Shown: positions 1,988 through 18,260, numbered from the stretch's first letter. The stretch is DNA of 64,000 nt from Sediminibacterium sp. (GCA_049314475.1 JBMOFB010000001.1:3047-67046); one strand, 5' to 3'. Notes: a model not told the origin generated them from the letters alone. Numbers and translations: made by a program.

Positions 1988-2634
1988 TAATCATTACAGT
2001 CTTCAAAATCTAATTGACAACCTACTCTCATTGCTTGTAAATGTTCTATAGCAAGACCACCACATGCTAATTGAAAAAATACTCCACCAACTCCTCCAGT
2101 CAAAGCGCCTATTCCAATTGCAGTAGCTGTGCAGCCTAAGATTTCAGATGTGTACACAATATTACTTAATCTGTAGCAATTATTATATTTTTGTGCACAT
2201 CTATTTCCTAGTAATAGCGATTGTTTATTTGAAGTAGTAGTATTTTTATAATTTATTTCGTTAAGTAAATTCTGAATTTCATTTTGAGAGTAATTCTCTA
2301 GAAAAGAGTATTTCTTTCTAATAGCATTAGCTAATATTGATTGATTTTTAAAAAATAGATTATACTCAGCAAGTGATTTAAATCCTAATTGGTTGATTAG
2401 TTGTACTTGCTCAATATTATTTAATTTAGGCTTTTTTAAAAGTTGAATACTTGCGTTGGAAGGGCTTTCCATATTATTTATAAAATTGGCATTATAGCTA
2501 ATGAGTTCTTGTACCATTTTATCAGTTTTAAATTCTTGAATACTAGTCACTAGTTTTATTTCTGAATTTTCTTGTTTTTGACATGACATTAGTACTAGAG
2601 ATAACGCTAAAATTTGGAATAATTGATTTTTCAT
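1987..2634 (-). CDS. Lipoprotein with C-terminal 6-Cys, Gly-rich bacteriocin-like domain
   Basis: Start moved to ATG 2634; signal MKNQLFQILALSLVLMS-C; C-terminus C-x6-C-x14-C-x22-C-x14-C-x6-C. Confidence 0.8.
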   Translation of the reverse strand: MKNQLFQILALSLVLMSCQKQENSEIKLVTSIQEFKTDKMVQELISYNANFINNMESPSNASIQLLKKPKLNNIEQVQLINQLGFKSLAEYNLFFKNQSILANAIRKKYSFLENYSQNEIQNLLNEINYKNTTTSNKQSLLLGNRCAQKYNNCYRLSNIVYTSEILGCTATAIGIGALTGGVGGVFFQLACGGLAIEHLQAMRVGCQLDFEDCND

Positions 2635-16310: not shown

Positions 16311-17360
16311 TTAAATAAATAATAACGCATCTCCATAAGAGAAGAAACGGTATTTATCTTTAATTGCTTTTTTATAAGCTTCCATAGCCAATTCGTATCC
16401 TGCAAATGCACAAGACATAATTAACAAACTTGTTTTTGGCAAGTGAAAATTGGTCACTAAGCTATCTGCAATATTAAAATTATAAGGAGGGTGGATAAAA
16501 TGATTTGTCCATCCTTCTGCTGGCTTCAATAAACGTTGTGCTGTTACACTACTTTCCATAGCACGCATTGCTGTGGTACCAATTGAACAAACACGTCGAC
16601 CATTTTCTTTTGCCGTATTGATAATTCTACAAGCGTCTTCGTCTATCTTAAAGTACTCAGCATCCATTTTGTGTTTGCTCAAATCTTCTACTTCAATTGG
16701 TCTGAAAGTGCTTAAGCCAGTGTGTAATGTCACTTCTGCAAAACGGATACCAAGGATTTCTGAACGCTTAATTAATTCTTTACTAAAGTGTAAACCTGCA
16801 GTAGGAGCAGCCACTGCACCTTCATGCTTTGCGTAAACGGTTTGGTATCTTTCTTTGTCATCTTCATCAGGCTTTCGCTTAATATATTTAGGCAATGGGG
16901 TCTCACCTAAAAATTCTAACATTTTTTTAAATCCTTCGTCATCACCTTCCCATAAAAAACGGATGGTACGACCACGGCTAGTTGTGTTGTCAATTACCTC
17001 AGCTACTAGCTCTTCATTTTCACCAAAGTACAATTTGTTACCTACACGAATTTTTCTTGCGGGATCAACAATGACATCCCATAAACGGTTAGGCTTATTT
17101 AATTCTCTTAATAAGAATACTTCGATTTTTGCACCTGTTTTTTCCTTACGACCATACATTCTGGCAGGGAATACTTTAGTGTTATTCACTACAAATACGT
17201 CCTTGTCATCATAGTACTCTAATAAGTCAGAGAAATGACGATTTTCCATGTGGCCGTTTTTACGGTTGACCACCATCAGTCTACTGTCTTCTCTTTTTTT
17301 TGTTGGGTACTGGGCAATCAGGTTTAAAGGTAGGTCATACCTAAATTGGGAAAGTTTCAT
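16311..17360 (-). CDS. queA: SAM:tRNA ribosyltransferase-isomerase
   Basis: [46 protein letters not shown]. Confidence 0.97.
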
Positions 17361-17400
17361 TTGTGTCTATATTTAAAATGATAGCCACATTAAGTTTACT

Positions 17401-17440
17401 ACAGCCTTACGGGGCAGTTCGCTTCATGTTACGGCATGAA
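17401..17440 (-). promoter_or_regulatory. Candidate structured queA 5' leader: two hairpins with identical CCGUAA loops
   Basis: UUCAUG-CCGUAA-CAUGAA and ACUGCC-CCGUAA-GGCUGU, downstream of -7 box TACATTTG (17452-17459, minus). Confidence 0.6.
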
Positions 17441-17579
17441 AATTATGGAGGCAAATGTACAAAATCGCCGTAAATTTGCCAATATAAGATTTGCCCTAAA
17501 ATTAGGCCGTTCATTTAAAAGCTGTAATTTTGCCAAACAGCCGTTAGTTTAGAGCTAATCGATTAAATATTAAGAAGCT

Positions 17580-18260
17580 ATGCTGCATAAAAAATGGTGG
17601 AAATTGTTGTCTTTTCTTTTGCTTTTGTACACTTGTACCTATGGTTTTTTGGTGAAAGTGCCTAAGTTAGACGACCGCATGCAGGAGTCCATCCGTAATT
17701 TCTTTTTTCATGTGCCGATGTGGTTTGGCATGATGATTTTATTGTTTGTTTCACTAGTTTATTCTATTAAATATTTAAGGTCATCTAGTTTAAAGCATGA
17801 TGTGTATGCGCAAGCTTATGCGGCCATGGGTTTGATTTTTGGTGTTTTAGGCATTATTACTGGAGCATTGTGGGCAAATTACCAGTGGGGTAGCCCATGG
17901 GTGGGCGATCCAAAGCAAAATGGTGCTGCCATCGCATTACTAATTTATTTTGCTTATTTTGTTTTAAGAGGCAGTTTAGTGGATGCAGAAAAAAAGGCAA
18001 GGCTCTCTGCGGTCTATAATATTTTTTCATTTTTCATGTTGTTTCCTACACTTTGGATTTTACCAAGGTTAACTGAATCTTTACATCCTGGTGGACAGGG
18101 TAGCGATGGTAATCCTGGTATCAATGGAAAAGATATGTCTGCAAACATGCGAACAGTATTTTATCCAGCAGTCATTGGATGGACTTTATTGGGGGTTTGG
18201 ATTACTACTTTAAAGATTCGTGTACAAATGATTCAATTAAAAAAAGAAGGCATCTTATAA
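17580..18260 (+). CDS. ccmC: Cytochrome c biogenesis heme-handling protein (CcmC)
   Basis: FFHVP, G.LWA...WG.PW..DPK (WWD domain), SLHP. Confidence 0.9.
   Translation: MLHKKWWKLLSFLLLLYTCTYGFLVKVPKLDDRMQESIRNFFFHVPMWFGMMILLFVSLVYSIKYLRSSSLKHDVYAQAYAAMGLIFGVLGIITGALWANYQWGSPWVGDPKQNGAAIALLIYFAYFVLRGSLVDAEKKARLSAVYNIFSFFMLFPTLWILPRLTESLHPGGQGSDGNPGINGKDMSANMRTVFYPAVIGWTLLGVWITTLKIRVQMIQLKKEGIL

Follow-up and report, generated by a model that had tools for sequence, protein, structure and literature searches.

A conserved hairpin with a tRNA-Tyr-like loop in the queA leaders of Chitinophagaceae, a candidate translational operator

The queA leader of Sediminibacterium sp.

The window analyzed here, a stretch of 64,000 nucleotides (nt) from Sediminibacterium sp. 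(GCA_049314475.1, JBMOFB010000001.1:3047-67046), carries queA on its minus strand, preceded by a leader in which two hairpins, P1 and P2, each display the loop CCGUAA (Table 1). The leader is a member of a catalogued, functionally orphan RNA family, queA RNA (Rfam RF03093), one of many such orphan motifs in bacteria, and almost certainly acts as a cis-regulatory RNA. Comparison with relatives provides this orphan motif with a concrete and directly testable hypothesis, namely that of one hexaloop hairpin with a tRNA-Tyr-like loop, placed on or close beside the queA start codon across the order to which the Chitinophagaceae belong.

Direct reading of the minus strand from 17440 to 17401 gave TTCATG-CCGTAA-CATGAA-GCGA-ACTGCC-CCGTAA-GGCTGT, with 40 nt between 17401 and the queA ATG (17360). 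The Rfam scan matched the leader to the whole RF03093 model (positions 1-59 of 59), well above the gathering score of 52.6. The 5' hairpin equals the model consensus UUCAUGCCGUAACAUGAA at all 18 positions, P2 aligns with a 2-nt deletion in the loop, and the tail agrees with ..CUGAAUGUGGCUAU at 16 of 17 positions. The match lies in sense orientation, ends 20 nt before the queA ATG and has no second copy in the 1.77-Mb genome, which is 89% complete. Having the same two hairpins and conserved 3' tail, upstream of queA and in a member of the Chitinophagaceae, the window element belongs to the family without any difference. The motif stems from the comparative screen of Weinberg et al. 2017, the main text of which is silent on it (PMC5737381). 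An initial annotation of the window, made from the sequence alone, had mentioned an orphan queA motif, and the scan confirmed the match; its statements on the leader sequence, the two hairpins, the -7 box, the 40-nt distance to the ATG and the tRNA-Tyr loop CUGUAAA were all correct. It had also judged that the leader does not look like a preQ1 riboswitch, in agreement with the finding that preQ1 (classes I-III), S-adenosylmethionine (SAM) and other riboswitch families gave no match at E<=10 in 17250-17650 under permissive filters.

Table 1. Features of the queA leader region, in window coordinates
Feature	Position	Strand	Basis or detail
Bacteroidota-type -7 promoter box TACATTTG (TAnnTTTG)	17459-17452	minus	read from sequence
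Rfam RF03093 (queA RNA) match	17381..17440	minus	70 bits, E 8.7e-13, full model
Hairpin P1, UUCAUG/CAUGAA stem, hexaloop CCGUAA (17434-17429)	17423..17440	minus	sequence, Rfam, fold
Hairpin P2, second CCGUAA (17412-17407)	17398..17418	minus	sequence, Rfam, fold
Conserved 3' tail AAACUUAAUGUGGCUAU	17397-17381	minus	Rfam model positions 43-59; alignment A1 (32 window-type leaders)
Helix P3, UGUG.GCUAU with AUAG.ACACA	17389-17362	minus	minimum-free-energy (MFE) folds
queA coding sequence (S-adenosylmethionine:tRNA ribosyltransferase-isomerase)	16311..17360	minus	349 amino acids, ATG 17360-17358

Pfam PF02547 identified the open reading frame (ORF) downstream of the leader as QueA, with E 3.6e-132 over profile positions 1-321 of 322. 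Most genomes have one further QueA-like match, which is much weaker. On the minus strand, a TTG at 17482-17480 lies 20 nt 5' of the -7 box TACATTTG, and the hairpin element begins 11 nt 3' of the box; this geometry would put the transcription start at about 17444-17447. A TAnnTTTG box is located 13-22 nt ahead of the hairpin in about 100 relatives. Assembled metatranscriptome contigs from two studies contain queA with its leader up to 17418, 17422 and 17428, followed by no cover until 17496, and P2, the tail and P3 are present in these RNA libraries. The contigs hint that transcription begins at P1 or slightly upstream of it, and the hint is weak because assembled contigs cannot define a 5' end. 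One contig of run X3 bridges the intergenic gap and may come from DNA or from a relative.

P2 can be drawn in two nearly isoenergetic registers, 0.7 kcal/mol apart. The first pairs ACUGCC with GGCUGU around a 6-nt loop, with one U-U mismatch (-4.3 kcal/mol); the second, found by Rfam and in the MFE fold, combines CC/GG around a GUAA tetraloop with ACUGC/GUAGU and has no mismatch (-5.0 kcal/mol). According to these models, the second window loop may be a GUAA tetraloop instead of a 6-nt loop. The U-U mismatch described in the initial annotation is therefore valid in the first register and disappears in the second, and while both of its hairpins are real, it missed the conserved tail to 17381 and the third helix, P3, to 17362. 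Within queA codons 6-10, GGUAUGA (17331-17345) complements the P1 5' arm plus CC (UCAUGCC) and rivals P1 in the predicted ensemble of a 116-nt context; since this pairing is not conserved in relatives, it is probably due to chance.

Conservation of the loop-bearing hairpin

A pattern scan for the exact P1 core, with one genome per species, returned at least 120 loci. The matches listed include Sediminibacterium, Ferruginibacter, Hanamia, Puia, Flavihumibacter and Ginsengibacter, all Chitinophagaceae. Of 139 exact matches gathered from public genomes, 104 have a QueA N-terminus 12-271 nt downstream; the remaining ones are chance hits in unrelated genomes or lie at contig ends. The closest leaders among the matches listed belong to freshwater Sediminibacterium-like metagenome-assembled genomes whose QueA is 98-100% identical. 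Within the family, the exact core was detected in 112 of 401 genomes (44 of 151 genera), and in the genomes scanned for it the hairpin occurs once per genome. Variants of the P1 stem are always compensated (UGAUG/CAUCA, ACAUG/CAUGU, UCGUG/CACGA), non-complementary combinations being confined to matches without queA linkage. Hairpin variants starting AGATG.. were rejected as chance matches within coding regions. The exact 16-nt core also occurs antisense to a conserved 23S rRNA segment in Spirosoma and other Bacteroidota (L049, L087, L103, L122). Those 23S rRNAs thus carry a hairpin with the complementary loop UUACGG, there is no second copy in Chitinophagaceae genomes, and the occurrence is probably a coincidence.

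The element extends well beyond the exact core. In genera without it, the 260 nt upstream of queA were collected (93 leaders), and a C[C/U]GUAA hairpin loop was found in 62 of them, compared with 3 of 93 reverse complements and 0-6 of 93 shuffled sequences. Counting the P1-positive genera and eight further leaders added to this census, at least 108 of 139 family genera possess a loop-bearing hairpin. A CCGUAA hexaloop (CUGUAA in one case) is also present in 25 of 60 queA leaders from other families of the order (23 families), on unrelated AU-rich stems located 10-28 nt before the AUG, with the AUG inside the stem in one family. Outside the order, 1 of 15 queA leaders from genomes sampled blind carries such a hairpin. 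Presence of the hairpin follows neither the conservation of QueA, whose amino-acid identity is unusually high, at 75-90%, across almost all of 150 family genera with or without the hairpin, nor the presence of QueF, as 7 of the 9 QueF-positive genomes carry it. The RF03093 model itself detects 19 of 151 family genomes, six of them above the cut-off, and essentially nothing elsewhere; weak covariance-model matches outside the family (L020-L022) were rejected as spurious. On comparison of the leaders, the Rfam model describes a single elaborated lineage, while the element at large is much wider and simpler; its distribution beyond that lineage, its hexaloop core and its placement at the start codon appear to escape the model in its current form.

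To describe the conserved part, 97 distinct queA-leader hairpins were aligned on their loops (alignment A3). Loop positions C9, G11, U12, A13 and A14 are invariant, and position 10 is C or U. Each of the seven stem pairs varies on both sides (232 cells versus 94 in shuffles), and the covariation score of 0.766, obtained from related sequences chosen for at least three flanking pairs, compares with 0.297 in shuffles and is reached by none of 500 of them. Judged by this comparison, the conserved unit is a hairpin displaying C[C/U]GUAA. It is an RNA structure and not a DNA repeat, because the stems differ wholly while the loop is invariant, the pairs co-vary and the signal is strand-specific; the initial annotation had come to the same view from the two window hairpins.

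Depending on the lineage, the loop is carried on the first hairpin, on the second or, as in the window, on both. Most relatives have only one such hairpin, and long leaders in which P1 has decayed keep a hairpin of the P2 type (such as GCCGCC-CCGUAA-GGCGGU or CCCGGU-GCCGUAAG-ACCGGG). Since lineages hold the loop on either or both hairpins, the two window loops, whose identity the initial annotation had singled out, are best understood as two copies of one putative recognition unit.

Placement at the start codon and predicted folds

The minimal forms of the element are hairpins of 16-30 nt on the start codon. In at least eight genera, verified for seven of them and for leader L072 (L072, L150-L156), the P1 3' arm itself is the queA start codon. 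Other lineages also have the AUG in the stem, with UUCAU[A/U]-CCGUAA-[U/A]AUGAA, CAUAUC-CUGUAA-GAUAUG and UGUAAAAC-CCGUAA-GUUUUAUG, and in many relatives the AUG is part of the stem or only 0-16 nt away from the hairpin. When leaders of every type are pooled, a helix running into the final 8 nt, the AUG among them, is predicted for 80 of 88. Five leaders (L008, L016, L078, L160, L166) read AUG-AAA-UAA or AUG-GAA-UAA, a two-codon mini-ORF, at the usual queA start position, and queA itself begins some 110 nt downstream of this point; what was the start codon in the ancestor seems to have turned into a very small upstream ORF.

The window hairpins sit 38-80 nt upstream of the AUG, and the predicted helix P3 alone reaches the initiation region, covering positions -2 to -9. 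The RF03093 model treats the conserved tail, which contributes one side of P3, as unpaired. Single-sequence folds of 32 leaders of the window type gave P1, a variable P2 and a helix (A)UGUG.GCUAU/AUAG.ACACA(U) ending at or inside the AUG, and UGUGGC of the tail is invariant among them. Chimeras of the two P3 halves indicate co-adaptation, with -6.7 kcal/mol for cognate and -3.6 kcal/mol for non-cognate combinations. In 43 longer leaders of the Ferruginibacter/Hanamia type (alignment A2), the P3 pair 85/114 is G-C in 17, A-U in 11 and G-U in 8. RNAalifold on plain MAFFT alignments recovered P1 alone, because the variable helices are not structurally aligned there; anchored and chimera tests were used instead.

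Constrained folding with explicit pairs gave a second fold for the longer leaders. In it, the P1 5' arm and loop (CAUGCCGU) pair with the tail AYGGCAUG (92% paired) and the P1 3' arm pairs with a conserved UAUC, producing a three-way junction with a free AUG. For 51 longer leaders (Ferruginibacter/Hanamia type), the two folds lie a median of 0.4 kcal/mol apart, and in the window the alternative reaches -14.5 versus -14.9 kcal/mol. Helices specific to the second fold show almost no two-sided co-variation in the longer leaders; with its own co-variation this weak, we take the AUG-freeing fold as no more than plausible. Longer leaders (L025-L141) also contain a third hairpin with a conserved stem CUGUA/UACAG, in which CUGUAA is part of the stem and not of the loop.

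A putative tRNA-like operator and its rivals

The tRNA-Tyr anticodon loop carries the base that is modified by Tgt and then by QueA. ACAGA-CUGUAAA-UCUGU is the anticodon arm encoded by the tRNA-Tyr gene of the window, and CCGUAA is identical to the first six bases of the loop of this arm at five of six positions; in CUGUAA lineages, the identity is six of six. These natural variants strengthened the resemblance that had been noted in the initial annotation, and its suggestion of autoregulation through tRNA mimicry is partly supported by the comparison. Because the loop copies the anticodon loop and the hairpin mostly lies on or beside the start codon, the element probably controls queA translation. 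We consider it reasonably probable that the hairpin loop is the recognition site of a putative trans-acting factor controlling translation initiation. The element is confined to queA, occurs in single copy and can shrink to a minimal hairpin on the start codon, and neighborhood comparison revealed no conserved gene beside queA that could encode a dedicated regulator, which argues for a macromolecule reading the loop and not for a metabolite aptamer.

We propose the following mechanism. The leader would display CCGUAA twice, on P1 and P2, with the tail then pairing to the bases just upstream of the AUG in P3. A trans-acting protein would recognize one or both loops; we infer both its identity and the sign of its effect. 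Of the candidates, QueA itself, when not occupied by preQ1-tRNA, requires the fewest assumptions, although this identification is tentative and rather doubtful. Binding would stabilize the fold with the closed initiation region, such that less QueA is made, and abundant substrate tRNA would titrate the protein away. For the reading as a whole, that of a translational operator mimicking the tRNA anticodon arm, and not of a metabolite riboswitch, we see an even balance of chances. Comparison strengthens the case for the leader loop as a putative tRNA mimic.

The gene content of these bacteria gives such control a possible use. Tgt, QueA, QueG and a YhhQ-family (YhhQ/Vut_1) transporter are present in the window genome (contigs C36, C9, C29); neither QueC nor QueF turned up in this genome, which is 89% complete, and QueF occurs in only 9 of 151 family genomes. 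Since QueF is rare and Tgt, QueG and the transporter are present, most of the Chitinophagaceae sampled probably salvage preQ1, and a QueA synthesis matched to demand is therefore plausible.

Several points weigh against the tRNA-mimic operator. The loop has six bases, or eight in many relatives, and never the seven of an anticodon loop. QueA's natural substrate carries preQ1 and not G, so that its affinity for an unmodified mimic is uncertain. About 31 of 139 family genera have short queA leaders and no hairpin, and control must therefore be dispensable. In the window, P3 stops 1 nt short of the AUG and the start codon itself is unpaired. Thermodynamics of the single sequence are not decisive for the window: the folding z-score of the leader is -0.59, and in the 116-nt context the ensemble probability is only 0.14 for P1 and about 0.55 for P3. 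The co-variation statistics of the inner pairs are inflated by the selection for at least three pairs and by sequence kinship. A literature search, in addition, yielded no account of a function for the queA RNA motif.

Known systems offer partial parallels. In Escherichia coli thrS, threonyl-tRNA synthetase represses its own translation via two anticodon-arm mimics. As there, the queA hairpins belong to the leader of a tRNA enzyme and resemble the anticodon loop of its substrate. In many relatives they also overlap the ribosome-binding region, to which those of the window would be coupled only through the predicted helix P3; unlike in thrS, QueA is a modification enzyme and not a synthetase, and the loops have 6 or 8 bases versus 7. 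The initial annotation had cited thrS for its two hairpins, which the window indeed has, but the analogy is weakened because most relatives carry only one. The MS2/R17 coat-protein operator is a small hairpin with a sequence-specific loop that contains the start codon of the regulated gene, an arrangement found again in minimal queA leaders; it is a phage system with an unrelated loop, however, and the window hairpins lie upstream of the AUG, linked to it via a further, predicted helix. A study on yeast histidyl-tRNA synthetase describes binding to an anticodon mimic in its own mRNA and translation that responds to tRNA levels (PMC6542539), i.e., translational autoregulation via an anticodon-like element, although by a eukaryotic synthetase. 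If the queA operator is true, tRNA mimicry as a means of autoregulation would reach beyond aminoacyl-tRNA synthetases to the enzymes that modify tRNA, and the element would show how apparent preQ1 salvagers match QueA output to substrate supply.

The main alternative partner, although unlikely, is a Tgt dimer, for which the hairpins would be decoys, or substrates where the loop is CUGUAA, so that occupancy or base exchange would set queA translation and couple it to preQ1/tRNA status. The queA loop is closest to the minimal Tgt substrate, a hairpin with the loop CUGUAAA (TAG3/ECYMH) (PMC13416341; PMC1950534), and shares with it a short stem showing C-Y-G-U-A-A. The dimer can hold two hairpins, as in engineered dual TAG hairpins (PMC13416341), and those of the window stand in tandem 4 nt apart. 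Tgt also modifies a virF mRNA hairpin in vitro (PMC1950534), and action of a queuosine enzyme on a hairpin in mRNA thus has precedents in the minihelix studies (PMC13416341; PMC1950534). Yet Tgt is reported to need U-G-U (PMC1950534), and over 90% of the queA loops have C at position 33; U-G-U is intact only in the CUGUAA variants of some relatives. Both window loops read C-C-G-U-A-A and depart from U33-G34-U35 in a loop of seven bases: because C-G-U replaces U-G-U and the seventh base is missing, they are unlikely to be Tgt substrates. Further points against Tgt are that most lineages have one hairpin and not two, that the regulatory logic is less direct, and that the element lies on queA and not on tgt, which in the window genome is leaderless and devoid of such a hairpin. 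The tgt promoter (G000:C36, about 2210-2225, minus strand) consists of TACCTTTG, 4 nt and the ATG, the geometry of a leaderless-mRNA promoter.

A broader version that covers both enzymes is conceivable, if doubtful: the CCGUAA hairpin would be an order-wide decoy of the tRNA-Tyr anticodon arm, with which QueA or a Tgt dimer gauges the supply of unmodified or preQ1-containing tRNA and sets queA translation. Control of a tRNA-modification enzyme by a copy of its substrate within its own message would be the first of its kind. With C in place of U33, the decoy would escape consumption by Tgt, and in CUGUAA lineages the mRNA itself might be queuosine-modified.

It is improbable that no dedicated factor is involved and that a constitutive hairpin tunes initiation or shields the mRNA 5' end, with the loop kept for folding or ribosome contact. 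5'-terminal hairpins do stabilize bacterial mRNAs, and the inferred 5' end would be only some 4-6 nt away from P1. The phylum, moreover, rarely uses Shine-Dalgarno pairing, and the hairpins are located in the initiation region. However, neither stability nor simple occlusion needs an invariant hexaloop on freely varying stems, order-wide and exclusive to queA, and CCGUAA is no known extra-stable loop.

We regard as quite improbable a riboswitch for preQ1, queuine, SAM or a related small molecule, in which P1, P2 and the tail would form the aptamer and P3 the expression platform. A conserved structured leader on a queuosine gene would suit it, as would the two nearly isoenergetic folds, of which the alternative frees the AUG in longer relatives; with QueF not found and Tgt, QueA, QueG and the transporter present, sensing of salvaged preQ1 would also be sensible. 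The known preQ1 riboswitches (RF00522, RF01054, RF02680) are likewise small leaders of queuosine genes, and a possible loop-tail pairing recalls their H-type pseudoknots, but they control synthesis and transport genes and not queA. In many lineages, the whole element is a hexaloop hairpin of 16-30 nt on the AUG, too small for an aptamer with a selective pocket, and everything except the loop varies freely, unlike an aptamer core. The lack of riboswitch family matches at E<=10 and the near absence of two-sided co-variation in the alternative-fold helices also speak against it.

Pairing of the loop with RNA, without a protein sensor, is very improbable. The partner would be either the leader's own tail (CCGUA with UGUGG, as a pseudoknot or alternative fold) or a trans RNA with UUACGG. 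In leaders of the window type, the tail UGUGGC does complement GCCGUA (three G-C, two G-U and one A-U pair); in longer relatives, tails ending (A)C/UGGCAUG or GGUCUGAU keep their complementarity to the P1 5' arm and loop, and position 9/77 of this long-range, 92%-paired helix is G-U in 17 and G-C in 13. The minimal hairpins and those of the other families of the order have no tail, however, the sole loop variant, CCUUAA in L008, is uncompensated in the tail, and no candidate trans RNA is known.

Finally, P1 as a DNA operator, a 5-6-5 palindrome TCATG-N6-CATGA for a dimeric transcription factor downstream of the promoter, has a geometry resembling CRP/FNR-type sites and always lies 13-22 bp past the -7 box, whatever its distance to the ATG, but is strongly disfavored by half-sites that differ fully between lineages around an invariant, non-palindromic spacer, by the strand specificity of the signal (62/93 versus 3/93), by the G-U pairs tolerated in the stems and by the recurrence of the same loop on a second, unrelated stem.
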